A DNA stretch of 52,757 bases from Candidatus Rokubacteria bacterium GWA2_70_23. Its GTDB lineage: Bacteria; Methylomirabilota; Methylomirabilia; Rokubacteriales; CSP1-6. The stretch lies in assembly GCA_001788395.1 (NCBI GenBank), contig MGBT01000190.1:186-52942 (forward strand). The letters run 5' to 3'. How positions within the stretch are numbered: position 1 is the first letter of the stretch; each line of letters begins with the position of its first letter. Shown piece by piece: positions 1-51,798 of the stretch. The notes beneath the pieces are model-generated. The model did no database searches. It was not told the DNA's origin and saw only the letters and a program-made list of their open reading frames with translations. The translations under genes were made by a program, and so were the position numbers.

Positions 1-1288
1 AGACGATGGACGCGATGGCGCGCGCGGCGGCGATCTTCATCTCGTCGTTGACCTGGCGGGCCCGCACGTCCAGCATGCCGCGGAAGAAGCCCGGGAAGCA
101 GAGCACGTTGTTGATCTGGTTGGGGTAGTCCGAGCGGCCAGTGGCCATGACACGGACGATGCCGTGCACCTCCTCGGGCATCACCTCCGGCGTCGGGTTG
201 GCCATGGCGAAGACGATGGGGTTCTTGGCCATCCGCTGGATGTCCTTGGCGGTCACGACCCCCGGGCCCGACAGCCCGATGAACACGTCCGCCCCCTTGA
301 GGGCGTCGGCGAGCGCGCCGCGCACGACCTTCTCGTTGGTGTGCTCGGCGAACCAGGTCTTGATCGGGTTCATGTTCTCGGTGCGGCCGCGGTACAGCGC
401 TCCCTTGGTGTCGCAGCCGATGATGTGCTTGCACCCCACCGCCATCAGGAGCTTGGCCGTGGCGATGCCGGCGGCTCCCGCCCCGGAGAAAACGACCTTG
501 ACGTCGCTGATCTTCTTCTTGACCACCTGGAGCGCGTTGAGCAGCGCGGCCAGCACCACGACGGCCGTGCCGTGCTGGTCGTCGTGGAAGACTGGGATGT
601 CCAGCTCCTTGCGCAGCCGCTCCTCGATCTCGAAGCAGCGGGGCGCCGAGATGTCCTCGAGGTTGATGCCGCCGAAGATCGGCGAGACGGCGCGCACGAT
701 CCCCACGATCTCGTCCACGTCCTTGGTGGCGAGGCAGAGCGGGAAGGCGTCCACGCCGGCGAACTCCTTGAACAGCACCGCCTTGCCCTCCATCACCGGG
801 ATGGCGGCCCTGGGCCCGATGTCGCCGAGGCCCAGCACCGCCGTGCCGTCGGTGACCACGGCGACGCAGTTCTGCTTGATGGTGAGCGTGTAGACCTTCT
901 GCGGGTCGTCGTGGATCGCCATGCAGACCCGCGCCACGCCGGGCGTGTAGACCATGGAGAGGTCGTCGCGCCCCTTCACCGCCACCTTCCCGCGCACCTC
1001 GATCTTGCCGCCGAGGTGCATGAGGAAGGTCCGGTCGGAGACGTGGACCACCTTGACGCCGGCCACGTGGCGGAGGGCGTCCACGACCTGCTGCCCGTGC
1101 TTGCTGTCGCTGGCGTTGAACGTGATGTCGCGGATGACGGTCTCGGGCCCCATCTGCACGATGTCGATGGCCCCGATGTCGGCCCCCGCGCGCCCGAGGG
1201 CGGAGGTGACCTTGCCGAGCATCCCCGTGCGGTTCCGGATCTCGAGACGGACGGTCATGCTGTAGCTGGCGCTTGGTGAGACCTGCAT
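1..1288 (-). CDS. NAD-dependent malic enzyme with N-terminal ACT domain (partial; 3' end runs off the left edge)
   Basis: Not in the ORF track because it is open at the edge. Reverse translation from ATG 1288 gives MQVSPSASYSMTVRLEIRNRTGMLGKVTSA, then malic enzyme motifs VTDGTAVLGLGDIG, VMEGKAVLFK, INLEDIS, FHDDQHGTA, FAMANP and TGRSDYPNQINNVL. SD AAGGAGG lies upstream. Confidence 0.93.
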   Translation of the reverse strand, partial: MQVSPSASYSMTVRLEIRNRTGMLGKVTSALGRAGADIGAIDIVQMGPETVIRDITFNASDSKHGQQVVDALRHVAGVKVVHVSDRTFLMHLGGKIEVRGKVAVKGRDDLSMVYTPGVARVCMAIHDDPQKVYTLTIKQNCVAVVTDGTAVLGLGDIGPRAAIPVMEGKAVLFKEFAGVDAFPLCLATKDVDEIVGIVRAVSPIFGGINLEDISAPRCFEIEERLRKELDIPVFHDDQHGTAVVVLAALLNALQVVKKKISDVKVVFSGAGAAGIATAKLLMAVGCKHIIGCDTKGALYRGRTENMNPIKTWFAEHTNEKVVRGALADALKGADVFIGLSGPGVVTAKDIQRMAKNPIVFAMANPTPEVMPEEVHGIVRVMATGRSDYPNQINNVLCFPGFFRGMLDVRARQVNDEMKIAAARAIASIV

Positions 1289-1504
1289 GGGCTCGCTCCT
1301 CCTTGATGGATTCTGCCGTGACGCTCGTGTCGCGGCAATGGTCGCCGATCGGCTCTCGCAGGGGCTGGGACAGGCCTGATCGGACCCGTCGGAGCGAGGC
1401 GCTCCCTCGCCCTACGAGCACCTTCCGTCATCGCGCCGGCGTCCGTCCATGAGTCGTTTGTCTCATTTTCTCGTGGGCCGCAGAGGCCGGCGCGGGCGAA
1501 CCGG

Positions 1505-4500
1505 CTATCGGGTCCGGCCCAGGACGAGCTGCCCCTCGGTCTCGCCCTTCTTGACCGGGTGCTGGTTCTGGCCAGTCGCCTCGGGCACCTTCCTCGACAC
1601 GTACGCGTAGACCTCGTCCACGGTGATGACGCCGTCGCCGTCGAGGTCGGCCTTGCCGCGGAGGCCCTCCAGCAGGTAGTACGTGAAGACCCCGTGACCC
1701 AGCTCCTCGCGCTCCTCGCTCACCTCGCTGGCGCGGCTCGCCGTGAGGACCACCCGCCCCCGGGCCTTGCCCAGCCGCGCCAGGAACGCATCGGACACCA
1801 CGGCCCGGCGCGAGGCCGTGACGAAGGTCCGGCCGCCCGTGGCGCCGCTGTAGCAGGCGTCCGAGATGAAGATCACGCGCTCGGCGGAGAGTCGCTGGAA
1901 GATGGTTTCCACCTCGCGCATGGGCAACCCCGTCGTGTAGAGGTCGTTCGGGTCCCCGTCGTAGGGAACGATGTACTTCTCGAGCCCGTCCTCGTCCTGG
2001 CTGGTGGCGTCCGTCTCGGGGGCGCCGTGGCCGGCGTAGTAGATGATCACCGTGTCCTGCGGCGCGGCCTTGCGCTTGAGGTCGGTCCCGAGCACGCTCT
2101 TGATCTTGACCAGCGTGGCCTGGTCGTTCAGCAGGAGCGTGATGTTCTCCTGCGGCACGCCCACGTTGGTCCGCAGGTAGTCGGCAAAGGCCGCCGCGTC
2201 CCGGTCGGCGAAGCGCAGCGATCGGATGCCCTTGTACTTCGAGATGCCGATGACCACGGCGTGGATCTTGCCGCGCTCCACCGCGCGCGTGATGATCACC
2301 GTCCGGGTCGTCGCGAGGTTGTCCCGGTCGTAGGCGGTGACGACGATCTCGTTCCGGCCTTCCTTGAGCGGCACGCGCTCGGAGATCTCCAGGTTCTCGC
2401 TCTCCGACACGGTGCCCGACAGGCCGCGCCCCTGCCGGCGCGTCAGCACCTGGCCGTTCACCTTCAGGTCCACCCAGGCGACGCCCTTGCCGCTGGCGAC
2501 GGCGCCGATGAGCTGGACCCGGTCCGCGGTGACCTGGGCGCCATCCTGCGGAGAGGCCAGTGCGATCACCGGCGGCGCGTTCTGGAGCACGCGGACCACG
2601 GCCGGGCCGCGCACCACGGGCACCGCGATCTCCCCCTTGGCGCTCACGTTCATCTCCGCCACGTCGCGCCTGGCGATCCAGCCGGTGTCCTTCTCCGAGA
2701 TCTGGATCCGGTACCAGTCGCCCAGCTCGCCCGTCACGGCCAGCTGCTGGTCCTTGCCCGCCGAGGCGATGACCGCCGTCTCCGCGCCGGCGCCCCCATG
2801 CACCCTGGCCGAGGCGTCCTTGACCGTGACGAGCTTGTTGGTGACCACGATCTGCGGCGGCGGCCGGCTGTCCACGGGGAGCTTGATCTCCTCGCTCAGC
2901 ATGGCGTTCATGCCGGTCTCGCGGATGAGGAACCGCAGCGGGAGCTGCGCCTCCGCGAGATCGCGCCGCACGGCGAGGTTCACCCGCGCCGTCTTCGTCT
3001 CGTCGGGGGCGAGCGCGCCGAGGGTCGCCGTGCCGCTCGTGATGGCGAGCCCCTGGGTCACCGCGCTCGTCACCTCCACCCGCGTGTCGCGCGCGGCCAC
3101 GGGGCCCACGTTCCGGAGCGTGAGCAGGAGGTCCACCGCCTCGCCCTTCTGGATGCGCCCGTCACCGTTGCCGACCGAGCCGCCGCTGCCGTCGTCGATG
3201 ATCTGGTAGGTATAGGCGAAGCGCGGGCGCGCCGCGCCCCGGATGGCGATCATCGCCTTGAGGGGATCGGGGGCGAAGCCGTTGTACTCCTGGAACTCGA
3301 CCCGCAGGGGGACGGAGGCGTCGCCGCGGTCGCGCGGGACCTGGATGGCGACGCGGTCCTCGGCGCTCTTCCCCCCGTCGATCTTCCCGAGATAGAAGAG
3401 GTGGCCGTCGAGCGCGGCGTCCTCGCTCCGGGTCCGCGCCTGCAGCCGGTAGAGCGGCCCCTTCCCCTTGTTGGTCACCGTGACCGACAGCGTGAGCTCG
3501 CTCCCGGCCGCGGCCTGCAGGGGGCGGATGGACAGTTCCGCCTCGGCCAGCGGCGGCGGAGACGGCGCCGGGCCGATCTCGTCGCCGCGCCGCTTGATCT
3601 TCTCGGCGAGCGCCGGTCCGAGCGTGGGCGCCACGGGCGGGCGCAGCAGCACGGTGCGGTCGCGCCCGCCGGAGGCCACGAGGGCGCCGTCGCGCGACAC
3701 CGCCACCGCCCAGACCGGCCCCTTGTGCCCGGTGAGCGCGGTGCGCTCCGTCCCCGTGGCCACATCCCAGATGCGCACGCTGCCGTCGGCGCCGGCCGAG
3801 ACCATGCTGCGCCCGTCGGGGGAGAAGGCCACGGACTGCACCTCGCCTGCGTGGCCCGACAGCACGCTCCGCTCCCGGCCACTCGCCACCTCCCACAGCC
3901 GGATGGTCCGGTCCGCGGAGCCCGTGGCCAGGAGCGATCCGTCCGGCGAGAAGGCCAGGGCGTGGACCTGGCCGCCGTGCCCCGCCAGCGCGAGCCGCTC
4001 ACCGCCCGTGGCCGTATCCCACAGGCGCGCCTGCGCGTCGCTGCCGCCCGTGGCAAGCGTTCGGCCGTCCGGCGAGAAGGCGACCGTGAAGACGATGCCG
4101 AAGCGGCTCCGCATGGAGCGGATCTCCCGGCCCGCGCGCGGGTCCCAGATCCTGATGCTGCCGTCGTCCCCGCCACTGGCGATCAGGCTGCCGTCGGGCG
4201 AGAAGCCGAGCCCCCGGATGGCGCCGAAGCGCGTGGAGAGGACCCGGACCTCCTTGCCCGAGGCGACCTCCCAGAGGCGAATGGTCGTGTCGCCGCTGCC
4301 GGAGGCAAGGAGCTGCCCGTCGGGAGAGAAGGCCAGCGCCCGCACGGGCCCCGTGTGGCCGCGCAGGATGCGCAGGTCGCGGCCGGTGTCCGGCTCCCAG
4401 AGCCGGATCGTCTGATCGCCGCCGGCGGAGGCAAGCATCCGGCCGCTGGGCGAGAAGGCCAGGGTGAAGACCTCGTTGGTGTGGCCTGCGAGCAGGCGCG

Positions 4501-10457: not shown

Positions 10458-13163
10458 CTACAGGGGCTTGAGCAGCGCATCCTCGAGGGCCTCCCGGAGC
10501 CGGTCCATGGCGGCCGGCTCCTCGATGCGGTGCCCCTGCCGGTCGGCGATGTAGAAGGTGTCGTAGGCCTGGTCGATCTCCGTGGCGATGCGGGCGCTGC
10601 CGATGTCGAGCCCGAGCGCGGCGAAGGTGCGCGTGATGAGATAGAGGAGCCCCACGCGGTCCGGGCACTTGACCTCCACCACCGTGTGCGTGTCCGAGAG
10701 GTGGTTGTCCACCGCGATCTTGGGCGGCCCGGGCACGGTCTCCGCGCCGCGGCGCGCGGTGCGGCGCGCGGCCAGGAGATCCTCCACGGACTGCTCGCCT
10801 CGCAGCACGCGGTGGAGCGAGTCGAGCGTGCGGCGCCAGCGCGCGTCCTCCGTCACCGCCTCCCCGAACGGGTCGTTGACCTGGAAGGTGTCGATGGCGA
10901 TCCCGTCGGCCCGGGTGTGGATCTGCGCGGAGAGGATGTTGATCCCCTCGGAGGCGAGCGTGCCCGCGATGAGCGAGAAGAGCCCCGGGATGTCGCGCGT
11001 GGCGATGACGAACTCGGAGGAGCCGAGATCCGGGTAGTGGAACAGCTCGGTGGCCGCCACGGCCTCCTCGAGCCGCTCCACGAGTCGCAGATGCGCGGCG
11101 ATGCGCGGCGGCGAGGTGGTCACGAGGTACCGCTCCGACATCATGGCGAGATGAGCCACGACCGTGCGGCGCAGCCCCTCGCGCCCCAGCTCGTCCCAGA
11201 CGCGGCTGGCGATGGCCTCGCGGTTCGCCCGCTCGGGCCGCCCGCCGGTGAGGCGCGCCATGGTGCGGGCGAAGCACTCCCAGAGGATGCGTGCCTGCCA
11301 GCCCGTCATGACGCCCGGCCCCACCGCCCGCATGTCGGCGACGGTGAGCAGGTAGAGCATCCGCAGCCGCTCGGGCGTCTCCACCACCGCCGCCAGCGAG
11401 GCGATGGTCTTCGGGTCGTCGATGTCGCGGCGCTGCGCGATGTGGGACAGGGTCAGGTGGTGCGCCACGAGGAAGGTGACCGCCGCGGCGTCCTCGGGCG
11501 GCAACGCGATGCGCGCGGTCAACGCCTCGATCAGCGGGATCCCCTTGGCGACGTGCCCGTGGCCCTTCCCCTTGCCGATGTCGTGCAGCAGCATGCCCAG
11601 CATCAAGAGGTCGGGGCGCGCGACCTCGTTCAGCACCTCCGCCGTGCCCTCCGACTCGGCGGACTGCCCGGGCGCCAGCGCCTCCAGGTGCTCCACGGCC
11701 ACCAGCGAGTGCTGATCGGCCGTGAACTTGTGGTAGACGTCGTACTGCACGAGACACGTGAGCGCCCCCCACTCGGGCAGGTAGCGTCCCAGCAGTCCCA
11801 GCTCGTGCATCTCCCGGAGCGTCTGCGTGACCCGTCCCCAGTCGCGGCAGATGGCGCAGAACAGGTCCCGCACCTCGGGGGAGGCCTTCCAGCTCTCGTC
11901 CACGAGGTCCAGCGACTCCTCGAGGGCGCGCTCCACGTCGATCCCCAGCTCGGCGCCCAGCCGGTGCGAATGCCAGAACGCCTTCATGAGCCGGACGGGG
12001 TCCTCGCGGAACGCGCGGCCGTCGGGATCCACCAGATGCAGCCGGCCGTCGAGCACGAAGAGTCCGTCGGCCAGCGCCTCCTGCCGGAGCCGGCGCCCCA
12101 CCGGGCGGGGGCGCGACAGCGTCTCGCGGCAGCGCGCGATGAGCCGCCGCGACACGCGGTGGATCACCCGCGCGTGGAGATAGTAGTCGCGCATGAACTT
12201 CTCGACGCCGAGCGACACGTCGTCGCTCGCGTAGCCGAAGTTCTTGGCGATCTGCGGCTGCACGTCGCGCGAGAGCACGTCGTTCTTGTGGCCGGAGAGG
12301 AAGTGCAGCTCGTTGCGGACCCGCCAGAGGAAGCTGAGGGCCTCGTCGGCCGTGCGCTGCTCCCGGTCGGTGATGAGGCGCTTGTCCGCCAGCTCGCGCA
12401 GCGTGCGCGTGCCGAACTTGGTGGAGGCCAGCCACATGGCCGTGTGGATGTCGCGGAGTCCCCCGGCGGACTCCTTCACATTGGGCTCGCCCATGTACGG
12501 CGAGCCGCCGAACTTCCGGTAGCGCTGGTCGCGCTCGGCGAGCGTCGTCTCCAGGAACTGGGCGAAATCCTTCCGATAGACGTTCTCGGAGAGCACCTTC
12601 CGGAAGCGGGTGAAGAGCCGCCGGTCACCCACGAGGGAGCGCGCCTGCTGCATGGAGGTGCGGCTCGTGAAGTCGGTGCGCGCCATGGCGAGGCAGTCGG
12701 GGAGGCTCCGCACGGAGTGCCCGACCTGCAGCCCCAGGTCCCACAGCGTGTAGAGCAGCCCCTGGGTGGCGCGCTGGACCATGGGCCCCAGGTCTCCGTC
12801 GTAGATCACCATGAGGTCGAGGTCGGAGAGTGGGTGGAGCTCGCCCCGGCCGTAGCCACCGAGCGCCACGAGCACCATGGACACCGGAGGCGCGCCCTCT
12901 TTCTTCGCGTCCTCGACGGCCAGGCGGTAGAGCGTGGAGAGGAAGCCGTCCATGAAGGCCGCGTAGGCCTGGACGGACTGCTGGCCGGAGGCCCCGCCGA
13001 GGTGGGCCGCCCGGAGGAAGTCGACATTGGAGGTGAGGTGCTGGCGGAGGAGCTCGAGGCGAAGGCGCCGGCGGCGCTCGGCCCGCTCGGCCGGCGCGCC
13101 CTCGAGACCCTTCTCGGCCTGGGCCTCCACCCGACGCACCTGGCGAAAGAGCTCCCCCGGCAT
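10458..13163 (-). CDS. glnD: [Protein-PII] uridylyltransferase/uridylyl-removing enzyme
   Basis: ALGGYGRGEL..SDLDL, EPNVKESAGGLRD, HD domain (LLHDIGKG) and two ACT domains. Start 13163 is supported by a TTGACA-N18-TACCGT promoter. Confidence 0.95.
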   Translation of the reverse strand: MPGELFRQVRRVEAQAEKGLEGAPAERAERRRRLRLELLRQHLTSNVDFLRAAHLGGASGQQSVQAYAAFMDGFLSTLYRLAVEDAKKEGAPPVSMVLVALGGYGRGELHPLSDLDLMVIYDGDLGPMVQRATQGLLYTLWDLGLQVGHSVRSLPDCLAMARTDFTSRTSMQQARSLVGDRRLFTRFRKVLSENVYRKDFAQFLETTLAERDQRYRKFGGSPYMGEPNVKESAGGLRDIHTAMWLASTKFGTRTLRELADKRLITDREQRTADEALSFLWRVRNELHFLSGHKNDVLSRDVQPQIAKNFGYASDDVSLGVEKFMRDYYLHARVIHRVSRRLIARCRETLSRPRPVGRRLRQEALADGLFVLDGRLHLVDPDGRAFREDPVRLMKAFWHSHRLGAELGIDVERALEESLDLVDESWKASPEVRDLFCAICRDWGRVTQTLREMHELGLLGRYLPEWGALTCLVQYDVYHKFTADQHSLVAVEHLEALAPGQSAESEGTAEVLNEVARPDLLMLGMLLHDIGKGKGHGHVAKGIPLIEALTARIALPPEDAAAVTFLVAHHLTLSHIAQRRDIDDPKTIASLAAVVETPERLRMLYLLTVADMRAVGPGVMTGWQARILWECFARTMARLTGGRPERANREAIASRVWDELGREGLRRTVVAHLAMMSERYLVTTSPPRIAAHLRLVERLEEAVAATELFHYPDLGSSEFVIATRDIPGLFSLIAGTLASEGINILSAQIHTRADGIAIDTFQVNDPFGEAVTEDARWRRTLDSLHRVLRGEQSVEDLLAARRTARRGAETVPGPPKIAVDNHLSDTHTVVEVKCPDRVGLLYLITRTFAALGLDIGSARIATEIDQAYDTFYIADRQGHRIEEPAAMDRLREALEDALLKPL

Positions 13164-13169
13164 GGCGAA

Positions 13170-13199
13170 ACGGTACATGGCGCGGACCGAGGCTGTCAA
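13170..13199 (-). promoter_or_regulatory. Sigma70-type promoter of glnD (TTGACA-N18-TACCGT), leaderless spacing
   Basis: Consensus -35 at 13199-13194 and -10 at 13175-13170, 6 nt before the ATG. Confidence 0.6.
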
Positions 13200-13239
13200 A
13201 CGTGGCGCAGACGTGGACCCCCGGATACAATGGCTCCCC

Positions 13240-14334
13240 ATGCGACGGCTCTGGCGCGCGGTACTGGATCAGGTGACCCCGTACGAGGCGGGCCCATCGA
13301 TCGAGGAGCTCGAGCGGACGCTTGCCATCGACGGCCTCGTGCGGCTCTCCGCCAACGAGAGCCCGCTGGGCCCCGCTCCCACCGTCATCGAAGCGCTGCG
13401 TCGGGAGGCCCGGCGCGCCCACCTCTATCCTGACGGAGGCGCCACGGCCTTGCGGACGGCCCTGGCGCGGACGCTCCGCGTGCAGCCCGAGTGGCTGATC
13501 GCCGGCAACGGGGCCGACGAGATCGTGTCGTTCATCGCCCGCGCGGCGCTCGACCCGGGGGACGAGGTGCTGATCCCCCACCCGTCCTTCGAGCCCTACG
13601 CGACGGAGGCCATGCTCGGCGGCGGCGCCGTCGTGCGGAGCCCGCTGGCCGGCTACCGGACCGACCTCGACGACATGCGCCGCCGCGTCACGCCACGCAC
13701 GAAGGTCGTCTTCGTCTGCACGCCGCACAACCCGGCCTCGACCATCGTCCCGGCCGGCATGCTCCTGCGCTTCCTCGAGGGGCTCGGCGACGATGCGCCC
13801 ATCGTCGTGGTGGACGAAGCCTATCGCGACTTCTGCGACGACCCGGACACGCCCGATGGGGTGGCGCTCGCGCGTCGCTTCCCCACCGTGATCGCCATGC
13901 GGACCTTCTCGAAGATCGCGGGGCTCGCGGGGTTGCGGGTGGGCTACGCCGTCGCGCGGCCGGAGATCATCGACCGCCTGAACCGCGTGCGCGCCCCGTT
14001 CAACGTCAACCGCTTCGCTCAGGTGGCCGCCGTGGCCGCCCTGGACGACCGCACCCATCTCAAGCGGACGCGCTCGCTGATCCTCGCCGAGCGCCCGCGG
14101 CTCGCCGCCGCGCTCCAGGCGCGCGGCGCCGTGGTGCCGCCCTCGCAGGCCAACTTCCTGCTGGTCCGCGTGGGCGAGCAGGCGGGGCCGCTGCGCCAGG
14201 CGCTGATGAAGGCGGGCATCCTGGTGAGGGACGGGGCGGGCGTGGGCTTCCCGGGACACCTGCGCATCGCCATCGGGACGGCAGAGCAGAACAACCGCCT
14301 GCTCGAGGTCTGGACCCGCACGCTCGCCCGCTAG
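13240..14334 (+). CDS. hisC: Histidinol-phosphate aminotransferase
   Basis: LSANESPLG, YPDGG, GNGADE, PHNP, VDEAY and RTFSKIAGLAGLRVGY (PLP lysine). Confidence 0.93.
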   Translation: MRRLWRAVLDQVTPYEAGPSIEELERTLAIDGLVRLSANESPLGPAPTVIEALRREARRAHLYPDGGATALRTALARTLRVQPEWLIAGNGADEIVSFIARAALDPGDEVLIPHPSFEPYATEAMLGGGAVVRSPLAGYRTDLDDMRRRVTPRTKVVFVCTPHNPASTIVPAGMLLRFLEGLGDDAPIVVVDEAYRDFCDDPDTPDGVALARRFPTVIAMRTFSKIAGLAGLRVGYAVARPEIIDRLNRVRAPFNVNRFAQVAAVAALDDRTHLKRTRSLILAERPRLAAALQARGAVVPPSQANFLLVRVGEQAGPLRQALMKAGILVRDGAGVGFPGHLRIAIGTAEQNNRLLEVWTRTLAR

Positions 14335-14353
14335 AGTCTTTGAAGGACTCTAG
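14331..14353. repeat. 23-bp CTAG-bounded mini-palindrome CTAGAGTC-N7-GACTCTAG
   Basis: Perfect 8-bp inverted repeat joining the hisC stop CTAG to the CTAG of the adjacent element. Confidence 0.7.
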
Positions 14354-14562
14354 CAGCCTGCTGAAAAACTCGCAGGCTGCTCAAAAAGGTCCAGATGCGA
14401 GGCGGCGCCCGACGGCCGCACGCGAGGCGTACTCCGCTTGGCGAGCCGAGCCTGAGGCGAGGCGAGCGGATCCGGAGATCCGGGCGAGCGTGAGCGAGCC
14501 ACGTTGAGCGTGCGGCCGAGGGCGCCAACGAAGCAGATGGGCCTTTTTCAGCAGCCTGCTAG
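14350..14562 (+). mobile_element. MITE-like structured repeat, copy 1 (full length, CTAG at both ends)
   Basis: TIRs CTAGCAGCCTGCTGAAAAA / TTTTTCAGCAGCCTGCTAG (18/19 match). Near-identical copies at 41937-42132 and 51587-51798. Confidence 0.8.
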
Positions 14563-14942
14563 CGGCGCTTGGTCGTGGTGCCGTTGCGCGCGGAGGGCTT
14601 CGTGGCCGCGGGCTTCGCGGTGGCGGCCCTGCCCTTCGGCGCCTGCACCGCGGCGAGCCGGGAGAGCGCGTCCTCCCGCTCGGCGCGCAGCGTCTTGACC
14701 TGCTGCTCGAGAAGCGTCACGCGCTGGTCGGCCTGGGCCGACTTCGACCGCAGCATCTCGGCCTCCGCGTACACGTCCTTCAGCTCGGCCCGGAGCCGCT
14801 GCGTCTCCGTGCGGCTCTCCGCCCACTTGCCCCAGAGCACGGCCACGAGCACCGCGAGCACGAGTGCCGCAGCGATCAGGAACCACGGGCGCCGCGGCCG
14901 GATGAGATCCGAGCCGCGCCCGTCCACCTCCGTCATCTCCAT
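14559..14942 (-). CDS. Hypothetical membrane-anchored coiled-coil protein
   Basis: SD GGAGGAG before ATG 14942, one TM helix, then a heptad-like charged helix. Confidence 0.7.
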   Translation of the reverse strand: MEMTEVDGRGSDLIRPRRPWFLIAAALVLAVLVAVLWGKWAESRTETQRLRAELKDVYAEAEMLRSKSAQADQRVTLLEQQVKTLRAEREDALSRLAAVQAPKGRAATAKPAATKPSARNGTTTKRR

Positions 14943-15024
14943 CGACTCTCCTCCGCGCAGTATCATGGGGCGAGTCTAGCACCCGCCGCCGCCGGGCCGC
15001 GAGGAGTTTGGTACGATACGCGCG

Positions 15025-39495: not shown

Positions 39496-40038
39496 CTACT
39501 GCCCCGCCTCGATGATCTTCACGGACTTCATCTTGTCGCCCCTCTTGATCTTGTCCACGGCGTCCATGCCCGAGGTGACGATGCCGAACACGGTGTAGTT
39601 GCCGTCGAGGAAGGGCGCCGCCGCGAGGCAGATGTAGAACTGGCTGCCGGCGGAGTCCGGGTTCTGGGAGCGCGCCATGGCCAGCGCGCCGCGGAGATGC
39701 TTCTGCTTGTTGAACTCCGCCTTGATCATGTAGCCGGGACCGCCGGTGCCGTCTCCCTTTGGATCCCCGCCCTGGACGACGAAGCCCGGCTCCACCCGGT
39801 GGAAGGTGAGCCCGTCGTAGAAGCCCTTCTTCGCCAGCGTGACGAAGTTCTCGACCGTCTTCGGCGCGTCGGCGGGAAAGAAGTCCAGCTTGATCTCGCC
39901 GCCCTTCTCCATGGTGATGACCGCTGACTGTTTTACCTTCTTGCCTCCTTGTTGGGCCTCGGCCGCGGGGAACGCCAGCCCCTGGCCCGCGAGCAGCGCA
40001 GCCGTACCCATGACGAGGGCGAGGTGTCGGAACCGCAT
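39496..40038 (-). CDS. Cyclophilin-type peptidyl-prolyl isomerase with signal peptide
   Basis: [39 protein letters not shown] and YTVFG. SD AAGGAGG. Confidence 0.94.
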
Positions 40039-40140
40039 CGGTGGGCCTCCTTGAGAATAGGAATGCGCCATTATGCCAGAGCCGCCGAGCGTGAGCGAGC
40101 CCCGGGGCCCGGCGCGAACGATCCATGGTACAGTGCATGC

Positions 40141-41940
40141 ATGCCGCAGCGTCCTGACATCCGAAACGTCGCCATCATCGCCCACGTGGACCACGGCAAG
40201 ACCACGCTGGTGGACGCCATGCTGTGGCAGTCCGGCATCTTCCGCGCCAACGAGCACGTGGCCGAACGGGTCATGGACTCCATCGACCTCGAGCGCGAGA
40301 AGGGCATCACGATCATGGCGAAGAACACGTCCGTCCACTACCGCGACGTGAAGATCAACATCGTGGACACGCCAGGCCACGCCGACTTCGGCGGCGAGGT
40401 GGAGCGAACGCTGACCCTGGTGGACGGCGTGCTGCTCCTCGTGGACGCCGCCGAGGGACCGCTGCCCCAGACGCGCTTCGTGCTCAAGAAGGCGCTGGAG
40501 GCCGGGCTCCCCCCGATTGTCGTCATCAACAAGATCGACCGCCAGGACGCCCGCGCGGCGCAGGTGCTCGACGAGGTGTACGACCTCTTCATCGACCTGG
40601 ACGCCTCCGAGGACCAGCTGGACTTCCCCGTCCTCTACACGGATGCGCGGAAAGGCGCCGCCACCACGGACCTGCAGGAGGAGGGGAAGACCCTCGCCCC
40701 CCTCTTCGACACGCTCCTGGCCCATATCCCACCGCCGCGCTTCGAGGAGCACCATGGGCTCCAGCTCCGCGCCGCCTCGCTCGACTGGGACGACTACGTG
40801 GGCCGGCTCATCATCGGCCGGATCGTCAACGGCCGCATCCGCCAGTACGATCGGGTGGCCGTCGTCCACCGGGACGGCAGCGTGGAGCATTCCAAGGTCA
40901 CCGTGCTCTACGGCTACGAGGGGCTGAAGCGCGTGGAGGTCGCCGAGGCCTGGGCCGGCGACCTGGTCGCCGTGGCGGGCATCGAGGCCATCGAGATCGG
41001 GGAGACCATCGCGGACGCCGAGACGCCGCTGGCCCTGCCGGTGATGCACATCGACGAGCCCACCGTGTCCATGCTCTTCTCCGCCAACGTCTCGCCCTTC
41101 GCGGGGCGCGAGGGGCGCTTCGTCACCTCGACCCAGCTCCGCGACCGGCTCTGGAAGGAGCGGCGGACCAACGTGGCCATCCACGTCGACGAGACCGACT
41201 CGCCGGACACGTTCCGCCTCTCCGGCCGAGGCGAGCTCCAGCTGGCCATCATCATCGAGACGATGCGGCGCGAAGGCTTCGAGATGGAGGTGGGCAAGCC
41301 CCAGATCATCACCCGGGAGGAGCACGGGCAGACGCTCGAGCCCATGGAGTCCCTGGTGGTGGACATCCCCGAGGAGTTCATCGGCGCCGTCACCCAGAAG
41401 CTCGGCCCCCGGAAGGGCCAGATGACCAAGATGGTGAACCACGGCACCGGCCGCGTGCGCCTCGAGTACCGCATCCCCTCGCGCGGGCTCATCGGCTACC
41501 GCACCGAGTTCCTCACCGACACGCGGGGCACCGGACTCCTGAACCACCTCTTCGACGGCTACGCCCCCTGGCAGGGGGACATCCCCCACCGCGGGAACGG
41601 CGCCATGGTGTCCGACCGCGCCGGCCGGACCACCGCCTACGCCATCGACCATCTCCAGCCGCGCGGCGTCCTGTTCCTCGCGCCGGGCGAGCCGGTCTAC
41701 GAAGGCCAGGTCGTCGGCGAGAACGCCCGCGACAACGACCTCGACGTGAACATCACCAAGGAAAAGAAGCTCACCAACATGCGCGCGTCCACCTCGGACG
41801 AGGCCGCGCGGCTCACGCCGCCGCAGCTGATGAGCCTCGAGCAGTCCCTCGAGTGGATCCGCGAGGACGAGCTGCTCGAGGTCACGCCGAAGTCGCTCCG
41901 CCTCCGCAAGAAGCACCTCAGCGGCCGCCGCCGCTTCTAG
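40141..41940 (+). CDS. typA: Translational GTPase TypA/BipA
   Basis: [38 protein letters not shown] and [11 protein letters not shown]. Confidence 0.97.
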
Positions 41941-42132
41941 CCGGGCCGCTGAAACAGGCCCATCTGCGGAGGTACGGCGCCCTCGGCCGCACGCTCAACG
42001 TGGCTCGCTCACGCTCGCCCGGACCGCCGGATCCGCTCGCCTCGCCTCCGGCTCGGCTCGCCAAGCGGAGTACGCCTCGCGTGCGGCCGTCGGGCGCCGC
42101 CTTGCATCTGGACCTTTTGGGGCGGCCTGGAG
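41937..42132 (-). mobile_element. MITE-like structured repeat, copy 3 (diverged ends, outer left TIR missing)
   Basis: Core is near-identical to the reverse complement of 14372-14562. Begins at the CTAG containing the typA stop. Confidence 0.75.
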
Positions 42133-42138
42133 CGCTGG

Positions 42139-43485
42139 TCAGCGGCCGCGGCGGGGGCCGCGCGAGGGGCCGCCGGGTCGCCCGCCGGGCGAGGCGCCGG
42201 GCCGCCCGCCGCGGGATCCGCCCGAGCGCCCCGGACCGCTGCCGACGCGGCCGCCGCGGGCCGCCATCCGCTGGCGCTTCTCCTCCGCGTAGCGGCGCCG
42301 CTCCTCGCTGGTGGGCTTGATCTCGGGCAGGTACCACTCGTCCTCGGCCCACTCGACCCGGATCTTCTCCCCGATGAACTTCTCGATGGGCTCGAGCTCG
42401 AGCGCCCCCGCCTCGTCGGCGAGGCTGATGGCCTTGCCCGCCGCGCCCGCGCGCGCCGTGCGGCCGATGCGATGGACGTAGTCCTCGGCATCCTGCGGCA
42501 GGTCCCAGTTGACGACGTGACTCACGCCCTCGATGTGGAGCCCGCGCGAGGCGACATCGGTGGCCACGAGAATGGGCAGCGTCCCGTCCTTGAAGTCGTT
42601 CAGCAGCTTGAGCCGCTTCTTCTGGTCCACGTCGCCCGTGAGCGCCCGGGCCTGCCAGCCGTTGCGGCCGAGGCGGTCCTCGAGCCGGCGGGCCTCCTCG
42701 CGCGTGTTGGCGAAGATGAGGATGCGGCTGCCGCCCTCCTGTCGCAGGAGGCCCAGCAGCAGGCTGAACTTCTCCTCGCGCCCCACGTGGTAGAGGACCT
42801 GCTCGGCGTTCTCCGCCGTCTTCTGGTGGGGCGTGATGGTGATCTGCGTGGGATTGTTCATGAACTCCCACGTCAGCTCCATCACCCGGAAGGACAGTGT
42901 CGCCGAGAAGAGAAAGGACTGCCGCTTCTCGGGCTTGGGCAGCTTCCGCAGGATGAAGCGCAGGTCGGCGATGAAGCCCATGTCGAACAGCCGGTCGGCC
43001 TCGTCGATGACGAGCACTTCCACGCGGGCCGGAGACCAGACGAGCTGCTTGAGGTAGTCGATGAGCCGGCCGGGCGTGCCCACCAGGACGTCGCACGCCT
43101 CGCCCAGCTCGTCGCGCTGCTTGGCGTAGTCGACGCCGCCGTACACCGCCAGGATGCGCAGGCCCGTGTGGGCCCCGAGGAGCTGCGCGTCGGCCCGGAT
43201 CTGCACCACCAGCTCGCGGGTGGGGGCGATGATCAGCACGCGGGGCGCCGTCGGCCCGCTGCGGGCCGGCGCCGGGTGGCGCAGGCAGCGGGTGAAGGCG
43301 GCGATCAGGAAGGCCGCGGTCTTCCCGGTGCCGGTCTGCGACTGGCCCGCCACGTCCTTGCCTTTGAGGGCCAGCGGAAGGGCGGCCTCCTGGATCGCCG
43401 TCGCGGTGACGAACCCGGCATCCCGGATGCCGCGCCGGACCGGCTCCGGCAGATCGAGAGCGGCGAGCTCGAGGGCTGTGGTCAT
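42139..43485 (-). CDS. rhlB: DEAD-box RNA helicase, RhlB-like
   Basis: DVAGQSQTGTGKT, PTREL, TPGRL, DEAD, SAT, HRIGRTAR and a Gly/Arg tail. Confidence 0.85.
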   Translation of the reverse strand: MTTALELAALDLPEPVRRGIRDAGFVTATAIQEAALPLALKGKDVAGQSQTGTGKTAAFLIAAFTRCLRHPAPARSGPTAPRVLIIAPTRELVVQIRADAQLLGAHTGLRILAVYGGVDYAKQRDELGEACDVLVGTPGRLIDYLKQLVWSPARVEVLVIDEADRLFDMGFIADLRFILRKLPKPEKRQSFLFSATLSFRVMELTWEFMNNPTQITITPHQKTAENAEQVLYHVGREEKFSLLLGLLRQEGGSRILIFANTREEARRLEDRLGRNGWQARALTGDVDQKKRLKLLNDFKDGTLPILVATDVASRGLHIEGVSHVVNWDLPQDAEDYVHRIGRTARAGAAGKAISLADEAGALELEPIEKFIGEKIRVEWAEDEWYLPEIKPTSEERRRYAEEKRQRMAARGGRVGSGPGRSGGSRGGRPGASPGGRPGGPSRGPRRGR

Positions 43486-49634: not shown

Positions 49635-49720
49635 TGGTGCGAGAGGGGGGAGTTGAACCCCCACGGGGATGCCCCTCTGGATCCTAAGTCCAGCGCGTCT
49701 GCCAGTTCCGCCACTCTCGC
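49635..49720 (-). tRNA. tRNA-Leu (TAG)
   Basis: GCGAGAG acceptor stem, anticodon arm CTGGA-CTTAGGA-TCCAG, long variable arm, GTTCAA T-loop, encoded CCA. Upstream of tig. Confidence 0.95.
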
Positions 49721-50417: not shown

Positions 50418-51587
50418 TCACCCCCTCGTCCAGAAGAGCAGCAGGCCCACGGCCGCGGCGCCGGCGATGAGCACGGGCTCGGGAATCTTGAAGCGCCAGC
50501 TGAGTCCAAGCGCTACGAGCCCGATCAGGAGCGTCGGGACGTCCACGATGGCCCGGCGGGCGAGGACGAAGCAGGCCCCGGCGATGGCGCCCGCGGCAGC
50601 GGCCGTCACCCCGCCCACGAAGGCCTTGACCTGCGGGTTGCCGCTCACGCGGTCGAACCACGGGAAGGGGATCACGACGAAGAGATAGACCGGCAGGAAG
50701 ACCCCGATCGCTGCCAGCAGCGCGCCCGCCTGCCCCGCCACGAGGTAGCCGATGAAGGCCACGGTGATCACCACGGGCCCCGGCGTGATCATGGCCACCG
50801 CCACGGCGTCCAGGAACTGCTTGTCGTTGACCCAGCCATGCTCCTGGACGACGCCGCCATAGAGGAAGGGGACGATGGCGAGCCCGCTGCCGAAGACGAA
50901 GGCGCCCGCCTTGGCGAAGAAGCCGAGGATCGTGCCGAGCGTGGCCAGCGAGGCGGGCTCGCGCAGGCCCTGGATCAGGAAGAGCGGCAGCGGCCCCACC
51001 GACCAGAGCGCCGCCCGCGCTCCCATCAGCCGGCGCAGCCAGGCCGGGGGCGCCTGGACGAGCAGCGCCACGACGCCGCACATGACGAAGAGCGTCGCGA
51101 TCTCGGACTCGGTCCACGCGGTGACGACGGCCATCACGAAGAAGATGGCCCAGAGCAGCCGGTCCCGGCTCATGGTGAGCCGCGCCAGCCGGTACGCGGC
51201 GCGCACGATGATCGCGATGACGGCGGCGCCCACGCCGAGGAAGGCCGCCTGCATCCACGAGAGCCCCCCGTAGCGCACGTAGAGCATGCCGATAGCGACC
51301 GTCATCACGTAGGAGGGCAGGATGAAGACGAGGCTGACCAGGGTGGCGCCCCAGACCTTGGAATGGATGTAGCCGAGGCAGATGGCGAGCTGGGCGGCCA
51401 GCGGCCCCGGGGCCAGCTGGGAGAGCGCCAGCGCCTTCTTGTACTCCTCCAGGGTGAACCACTTCCGCTGCTCCACCAGGTCCCGCTGCATGTAGCCCAC
51501 GAGGGCCACGGGCCCGCCGAAGCCGAGGGCGCCGAGATAGAGGAAGTACCGGAGGAGCTCGGATAGACTGGGCACGGGGGTCACCAC
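50418..51587 (-). CDS. chrA: Long-chain chromate transporter (CHR family)
   Basis: GFGGP, SQLAPGP, FGSG and MITPGP, in two homologous halves. Confidence 0.92.
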   Translation of the reverse strand: MVTPVPSLSELLRYFLYLGALGFGGPVALVGYMQRDLVEQRKWFTLEEYKKALALSQLAPGPLAAQLAICLGYIHSKVWGATLVSLVFILPSYVMTVAIGMLYVRYGGLSWMQAAFLGVGAAVIAIIVRAAYRLARLTMSRDRLLWAIFFVMAVVTAWTESEIATLFVMCGVVALLVQAPPAWLRRLMGARAALWSVGPLPLFLIQGLREPASLATLGTILGFFAKAGAFVFGSGLAIVPFLYGGVVQEHGWVNDKQFLDAVAVAMITPGPVVITVAFIGYLVAGQAGALLAAIGVFLPVYLFVVIPFPWFDRVSGNPQVKAFVGGVTAAAAGAIAGACFVLARRAIVDVPTLLIGLVALGLSWRFKIPEPVLIAGAAAVGLLLFWTRG

Positions 51588-51798
51588 TAGCAGTCTGCTG
51601 AAAAAGGCCCATCTGCTTCGTTGGCGCCCTCAGCCGAACGCTCAACGTGGCTCGCTTGCGCTCGCCGGATCTCCGGATATGCTCGCCTCGCCTCCGGCTC
51701 AGCTCGCCAAGCGGAGTACGCCTCGCGTGCGGCCGTCGGGCGCCGCCTCGCATCTGGACCTTTTTGAGCAGCCTGCGGGTTTTTCGGCAATCTGCGAG
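51587..51798 (-). mobile_element. MITE-like structured repeat, copy 2 (full length, inverted relative to copy 1)
   Basis: CTAGCAGTCTGCTGAAAAAGG...TTTTTCGGCAATCTGCGAG, colinear with the reverse complement of 14350-14562. Confidence 0.8.

Follow-up and report, generated by a model that had tools for sequence, protein, structure and literature searches.

A short noncoding sequence that recurs within a single contig raises the question of whether it is mobile DNA or a structure that serves its host, and of how its copies came to lie where they do. The sequence was found in a 52,757-nt stretch (here called the window) of contig MGBT01000190.1 from Candidatus Rokubacteria bacterium GWA2_70_23.

Copies in the window and in other genomes

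Copy 1 lies on the forward strand at positions 14350..14562. It is full length, running from CTAG to CTAG, and was recognized by reading, by alignment, as repeat pairs, and with nhmmer (229 bits; model positions 2-214). Its outer-left terminal repeat, which includes CTAG (14350..14368), differs from the right terminal repeat ending in CTAG (14544..14562) by 1 mismatch, in agreement with the 18/19 match given for these 19-nt ends in the initial annotation. The second, nested left end proposed there was also found; this inner-left repeat (14369..14387) pairs with the right end with 2 mismatches, and together they form the base of a long hairpin. Between them, the core (14388..14543) consists of a long imperfect stem, branched in its apical domain, with an A-run before it and a T-run after it, all of these features being read on the forward strand.

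The other two copies are on the reverse strand. Copy 2 (41937..42132; nhmmer, 199.9 bits, model positions 16-211) comprises the core and the right end. Its outer-left module is degenerate, although traceable to position 42153, and because a DEAD-box helicase gene overlaps this stretch with its 3′ end, the copy has neither a recognizable outer-left repeat nor a left CTAG. Copy 3 (51587..51798; nhmmer, 218.8 bits) is full length, with CTCG at the left and CTAG at the right, and is located between an alpha/beta hydrolase gene and a chromate transporter gene, all on the same strand. The three copies had been described as colinear, with these coordinates and strands, and this was borne out by reading, by alignment (84% mean column identity), and by the repeat finder, which paired the copies at 93 to 95% identity. 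A 24-mer of the core occurs three times in the window, compared with 0.00 expected.

Reference genomes were scanned with an exact 20-mer from the element core, which identified 33 further loci (referred to below by L numbers). Twelve are in the Rokubacteria MAG MGBV01, 20 are in the Rokuibacteriota MAG JACPCX01, and 1 is in MGTY01000051, a contig labeled Elusimicrobia; none of the contigs carrying these loci is the window itself. An nhmmer profile built from full-length copies returned 39 matches scoring 90 bits or more. The window contributed 3 and the loci contributed 36, and 22 of the 39 were full length. As the profile also found copies without the exact 20-mer in the 2-kb flanks (L010, positions 836-1048; L004, positions 1-110), the 20-mer count of 12 to 20 loci per draft genome (MGBV01 and JACPCX01) is an undercount; these counts do not establish the genome-wide abundance suggested in the initial annotation. 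Copy numbers from draft genomes are likewise lower bounds, since the element lies near contig ends, as expected if the repeat breaks MAG assemblies. In 4 of the 33 loci (L001, L005, L012, and L024), it is at most ~450 nt from a contig end. The copy on the Elusimicrobia-labeled contig (L026) is the most divergent, with 88% identity to its nearest neighbor, and the contig may be misbinned or may carry the trace of a transfer. In L032 (1945-2269), two partial copies 129 nt apart with a masked run of N between them could be a tandem pair or an artifact of assembly across the repeat.

The initial description of a dispersed, noncoding, multicopy family with CTAG-bounded inverted terminal repeats holds for unrelated loci in at least three genomes. 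A BLASTN search of plasmid and phage collections with copy 1 returned no matches. The ∼213-bp element is without coding capacity; indels of 1 and 2 nt are fixed in subfamilies and break the frame, which rules out a coding reading of the ORF beginning MRGGARR. A protein search with the longest ORF of the element (65 amino acids) gave six weak matches among seven candidates, too few to gauge its spread. In the open-access literature, no repeat family or MITE was found described for Rokubacteria, nor any MITE associated with CTAG or with stop codons. The element thus appears to be an undescribed family of a familiar kind, resembling a MITE or an interspersed palindromic repeat.

BLAST comparisons of all loci and the window identified no common flanks beyond the element and one neighboring repeat, and among these sequences there were no orthologous flanks that could reveal an empty site. 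Core identity was 91.6% within genomes and 90.9% between genomes, and the nearest neighbor of a core was often in a different genome, at 97 to 99% identity (e.g., 98.7% for copy 1 and the L012 copy). The family also includes tandem copies, one copy with an internal deletion (L019), and copies that are truncated (L006, L014, L022, L029, and L028). Such variants at unrelated loci are characteristic of a repeat family that was active or recombining in the recent past and not of single-copy genes passed on by inheritance. The element is short and noncoding, has terminal inverted repeats, and is present in many copies at nonhomologous sites, and we favor, with a probability of roughly 60%, the reading that it is nonautonomous, MITE-like mobile DNA of ∼213 bp in a Rokubacteria clade.

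Several rearranged copies deserve description in their own right. In L033 (1927-2939), a left arm (model positions 1-98) and a right arm (model positions 152-214) enclose 850 bp that hold a complete gene for a fatty acid desaturase (Pfam FA_desaturase), flanked by a leader and a trailer of its own. The outer stem is intact, and it looks as though the apical domain has been replaced by cargo. Breakpoints recur just after a 7-nt direct repeat, GCGAGCC, found at model positions 98 and 151; this applies to L014 (1927-2024), to both sides of the insert in L033, to L006 (1927-2077), and to the short copy in L019 (1754-1883). The truncated element in L014 is fused to a cyclopropane-fatty-acid synthase gene, convergent with it, whose reading frame extends ∼26 codons into the element. 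Copies truncated at the 3′ end lie directly upstream of genes in L006 (1927-2100), L029 (1927-2100), and L022 (1926-2082), the genes that follow encoding a molybdopterin oxidoreductase, an M20 peptidase, and a yceD-like ORF. An apparent GTG start codon lies inside the element in L006 and L029, and these two copies have a variant 5′ stem segment in common with the L026 copy. A second repeat family of ∼165 to 190 bp, with ∼30-bp terminal inverted repeats, adjoins the left end of the element at three loci in two genomes (L015, 1752-1926; L018, 2100-2290; L024, 525-700).

Element ends and their position at stop codons

Similarity between copies stops sharply outside the terminal tetranucleotide, and the flanks diverge at once. 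The left ends (n = 28) read CTAG in 10 copies, CCAG in 7, CTAA, CTGG, and CTCG in 2 each, and CTCC, GTAG, CCGG, CTGT, and CGAG once each. At the right end (n = 29), CTAG was found in 22 copies (two of them after a 1-nt insertion), CTAC in 4, CCAG in 2, and CGGG in 1. The copy boundary is CTAG or one of its decay products; in bacteria, CTAG is generally considered to decay to CCAG or CTGG. CTAG occupies both ends in only 8 of the 22 full-length copies, which counts against the MITE reading. The tetranucleotide is scarce in the window, with 15 sites compared with 62.75 expected, an approximately 4-fold depletion over 52.7 kb of this ∼70% G+C genome. Four of the 15 are element ends, and 5 of the other 11 serve as stops of ORFs with GC3 support. 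Despite the depletion of CTAG, the 33 such ORFs of the window use TAG more often than any other stop (18 TAG, 15 TGA, and no TAA).

The main pattern, absent from the initial annotation, is that the element docks on stop codons with strong polarity. At the right end, the terminal CTAG or CTAC supplies the TAG stop of an ORF on the opposite strand in 21 of 29 copies. The docked ORFs are long and have the coding signature of the genome (GC3 of 0.88 to 1.0). Nineteen of the 21 cases were scored by script, and the remaining two (copy 2 and L003), shifted by one base, were settled separately. In L015 and L027, TAG has become TGG, and the opposite-strand gene ends four codons inside the element at a TGA. 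Only 5 of 28 left ends (L004, L016, L017, L030, and L029) hold, in their terminal CTAG or CTAA, the stop of a same-strand gene, giving a right-to-left ratio of 21:5 (two-sided binomial P = 0.0025). This polarity also counts against the MITE reading, since a palindromic target should offer a DDE transposase no preferred orientation.

Two of the docked ORFs are in the window. The right-end CTAG of copy 1 provides the stop of a 135-amino-acid ORF (14559..14966, reverse strand), its TAG being bases 14559-14561 read on the reverse strand; this ORF has 138 open codons and a GC3 of 0.99, and no Pfam family matched it. On the other side, an aminotransferase class I/II gene (12967..14334, forward strand) is convergent on copy 1 and ends at a CTAG stop of its own, 15 nt before the element. 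The BipA/TypA gene (39928..41940, forward strand) has its TAG stop (41938-41940) in the right-end CTAG of copy 2. According to Pfam analysis of the flank ORFs, the docked genes are ordinary housekeeping genes. GlnA (L023) has its C terminus at the residue where solved glutamine synthetases end, and the alignment of the BipA protein in the window to solved BipA chains reaches residue 666 of 669; since both C termini agree with the solved chains, neither protein has been truncated by the element.

By hand classification, about 11 copies lie between convergent genes. Same-strand gene pairs enclose about 10 copies that run opposite to the genes and four full-length copies (copy 3, L016, L017, and L030) that are codirectional with them. 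Normally adjacent pairs are split in L017 (glmU-glmS), L016 (atpI-atpB), and L007 (ctaA-ctaB-like). The copies between convergent genes are what would be expected of a bidirectional terminator or RNA-stabilizing hairpin that serves the host at gene ends and is kept by purifying selection, however it spread. The high identity of nearest-neighbor cores noted above, found between genomes of different species, is consistent with such a function. However, copies of both orientations are also found within operons (glmU-glmS, atpI-atpB, and ABC transporter operons), where terminating transcription would do harm, and we regard the host-function explanation as unlikely.

Hairpin structure and its conservation

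Copy 1 is predicted to fold into one long hairpin with a free energy of −135.8 kcal/mol (z = −7.7); its complementary strand gave −119.7 kcal/mol (z = −6.4). RNAalifold applied to 28 copies returned the same 60-pair structure as the fold of copy 1, with 97.1% of cells paired, compared with 30 to 42% in slid controls. Nine pairs had changed on both sides, compared with 2.9 in shuffles, and none of 500 shuffles reached the observed number. In the column pair 30/209, which joins the inner-left repeat to the right end, the 28 copies carry CG (12), UA (11), UG (2), GC (1), or other combinations (2). Both pair states occur within one marker-defined subfamily (copy 3 and L007 versus L016 and L017), and L030 carries the UG intermediate. 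This end-to-end covariation points to selection on base pairing, beyond what transposase binding would require.

Conservation is uneven along the element. The column majority is 69% in the outer-left repeat (columns 1-23), 87% in the inner-left repeat, 94% in the core (columns 39-200), and 90% at the right end. Of the terminal repeats first proposed, then, the nested one is conserved and covaries with the right end, whereas conservation is lowest in the outer 19-bp TIR. That conservation peaks in the core rather than at the ends is contrary to what would be seen in a decaying MITE, which needs only its ends; it suits a host function, as does the higher conservation of paired than of unpaired columns (0.968 versus 0.90). 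So does the arrangement of five A residues to the left and five T residues to the right of the hairpin, by which either strand reads as a hairpin followed by a U-run. Nevertheless, a simple terminator scan (14200-14700) called none at copy 1, and the closing stem spans ∼150 nt, unlike canonical intrinsic terminators.

One insertion beside the hairpin also bears on a terminator-like role, although a single case is an anecdote. In L018, a group II intron of ∼1.9 kb (1-1881, reverse strand; RF02003, 100.7 bits, with D5-D6 at the locus edge) interrupts the right end of the element and begins 8 nt past the hairpin base, just after the T-run. Its protein has RVT_1 and GIIM domains and no endonuclease domain. 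Class IIC introns are described in PMC1702495 as inserting a few nucleotides after terminator stem-loops; the L018 intron has the position that such introns take relative to terminators.

The strong fold and the covarying, conserved structure might be those of a small RNA gene family, or some other described RNA, duplicated in the genome. We consider this highly improbable. A check for described RNAs had been suggested at the outset, and no Rfam family matched the element at the gathering threshold in the window; with copy 1 searched at E values up to 10, the best E value was at least 2, which is chance level. A sigma-70 scan (14200-14700) identified no promoter-like site in or beside copy 1, the orientation of copies relative to neighboring genes is mixed, and the boundaries are CTAG and stop codons rather than transcription signals. 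The sole Rfam match in the window was a tRNA gene (49638-49720, reverse strand), and over the loci only a tRNA and the group II intron were called.

Compensatory changes that preserve pairing of the inner-left repeat with the right end would also fit a single-stranded DNA element moved by an HUH/Y1 enzyme (an IS200/IS605-type PATE or a RAYT-type REPIN) without a true target duplication, the recognition unit being the conserved tetranucleotide plus the hairpin. Several asymmetries lean the same way. All five consensus wobble pairs are G·T on the forward strand and none is A·C, and sporadic G·T cells outnumber A·C cells 26:11 (P = 0.02 by cells; not significant by pairs), a bias that suggests one folding strand. 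The ends are unequal, with two repeat units at the left and one at the right, and the four CTAC right ends read GTAG, the REP head motif, on the other strand. A link between orientation and replication was ruled out, however, by copies of both orientations within the 52-kb window and, in L010, by two opposite copies 900 bp apart (i.e., within 1 kb). Its length of ∼213 bp, together with a large conserved apical domain, puts the element far above the size of REP and REPIN units, and no Y1 or RAYT gene was present among the 128 flank and window ORFs scanned. A local hairpin formed by the two left-end repeats was rejected, as only 62.8% of its cells were paired and 105 of 500 shuffles were as good. 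Movement by an HUH/Y1 enzyme therefore seems to us distinctly unlikely, though less so than a small RNA family.

Relation to known elements and proposed mechanism

Returning to the MITE-like reading, a partner transposase was sought in ∼185 kb. Neither a transposase with matching ends nor a longer element with the same ends was found among 45 window ORFs and 83 flank ORFs, and a scan of the same ∼185 kb for the terminal motifs gave 96 matches, none outside known copies. The earlier statement that the window lacks a transposase holds for the 45 ORFs scanned with Pfam, a set that left out short ORFs and ORFs without GC3 support. The only transposase among the 83 flank ORFs, and the only DDE_Tnp_1 match, is ISAs1-like and frameshifted and lies ∼450 nt from the copy in L026; as it bears no similarity to the element ends, it was rejected as a partner. 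The same locus (L026, 1-1500) also carries an IS4-like N-terminal fragment.

The initial annotation attributed the ends to the IS5 family, elements of which make a 4-bp YTAR duplication. CTAG or CTAA at the ends of many copies is compatible with this, in common with IS5-family elements and their MITEs, but the element differs from them in retaining CTAG at both ends in so few of its full-length copies. A TA duplication within CTAG, of the IS630 type, would fit the CTAG-to-CTAG junctions as well, and with no partner in ∼185 kb the attribution to IS5 specifically is not established. The junctions are compatible with C-TA-G at both ends, and the four CTAC right ends with NTAN. IS630 is listed in Table 1 of PMC2577343 (and its reference 60) with a CTAG target and a 2-bp TA duplication. 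Like the MITEs of IS630/Tc1-mariner elements, the element is small and noncoding and has terminal inverted repeats and CTAG at its junctions. Unlike what would be expected of those MITEs, it has an orientation bias and an extra left-end repeat, and the ∼185 kb held no IS630-like partner.

Other families of bacterial repeats offer partial parallels. The Correia/NEMIS, ERIC, and bcr1 elements are imperfect palindromes of 100 to 200 bp that are intergenic and cotranscribed with their neighbors; they fold as long RNA hairpins with suspected effects on termination or mRNA stability. The element differs from these in sequence, in host phylum, and in its precise polar docking on TAG stops. With REP sequences and REPINs, which are associated with RAYT, it has in common a conserved tetranucleotide beside a palindrome, hairpin covariation, and extragenic location. 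However, it is ∼5 to 10 times longer, has a branched conserved core, and is so far known in tens of copies rather than hundreds; a ∼213-bp unit with a 160-nt conserved core falls outside a class defined by palindromic units of 20 to 40 nt, single or in doublets, and a RAYT link.

For the MITE-like element, the following route would account for much of what was observed. A transposase supplied in trans would recognize the ∼18-bp terminal repeats and integrate the element at 5′-CTAG-3′, with duplication of TA (IS630/Tc1-mariner type) or of CTAG (IS5 type). As the remaining CTAG sites would be largely C-TAG stop codons and spacers, insertions would land at gene ends, and they would be tolerated because the duplication returns the stop codon to the gene with its frame intact. 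Once inserted, the element would be transcribed within a 3′ untranslated region or an intercistronic spacer, where the hairpin with its A-run and T-run could serve as a two-way terminator or an RNA-stabilizing structure; such a role would explain why pairing has been maintained.

A bolder alternative combines docking and function. The element might be a strand-specific, hairpin-dependent module that docks on TAG stops in a preferred orientation, is selected as a two-way terminator or 3′-end structure, and has an apical domain that can be swapped for cargo, as the desaturase gene between the intact arms in L033 would exemplify. We judge this unlikely, marginally more so than a host-serving hairpin as such.

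The Rokubacteria are uncultured bacteria with large genomes. In PMC5712423, 8 to 17% of the genome is reported to be noncoding. The element and the second, neighboring repeat family account for part of this noncoding DNA. Both will break assemblies and seed spurious ORFs, and the repeats already give real genes artificial tails or heads in L014, L015, L027, L006, and L029. If a depleted palindrome survives mostly at stop codons, it offers a safe landing site, and genome composition would in this way shape the choice of target. The orientation bias and the structural covariation hint that the host makes use of the hairpin. Three features make the family worth following up: polar docking on stop codons, covariation that keeps the pairing, and stronger conservation of the core than of the ends. 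Should the element prove to be a docking module, it would represent a new way of distributing gene-end signals, and perhaps genes, across a bacterial genome.
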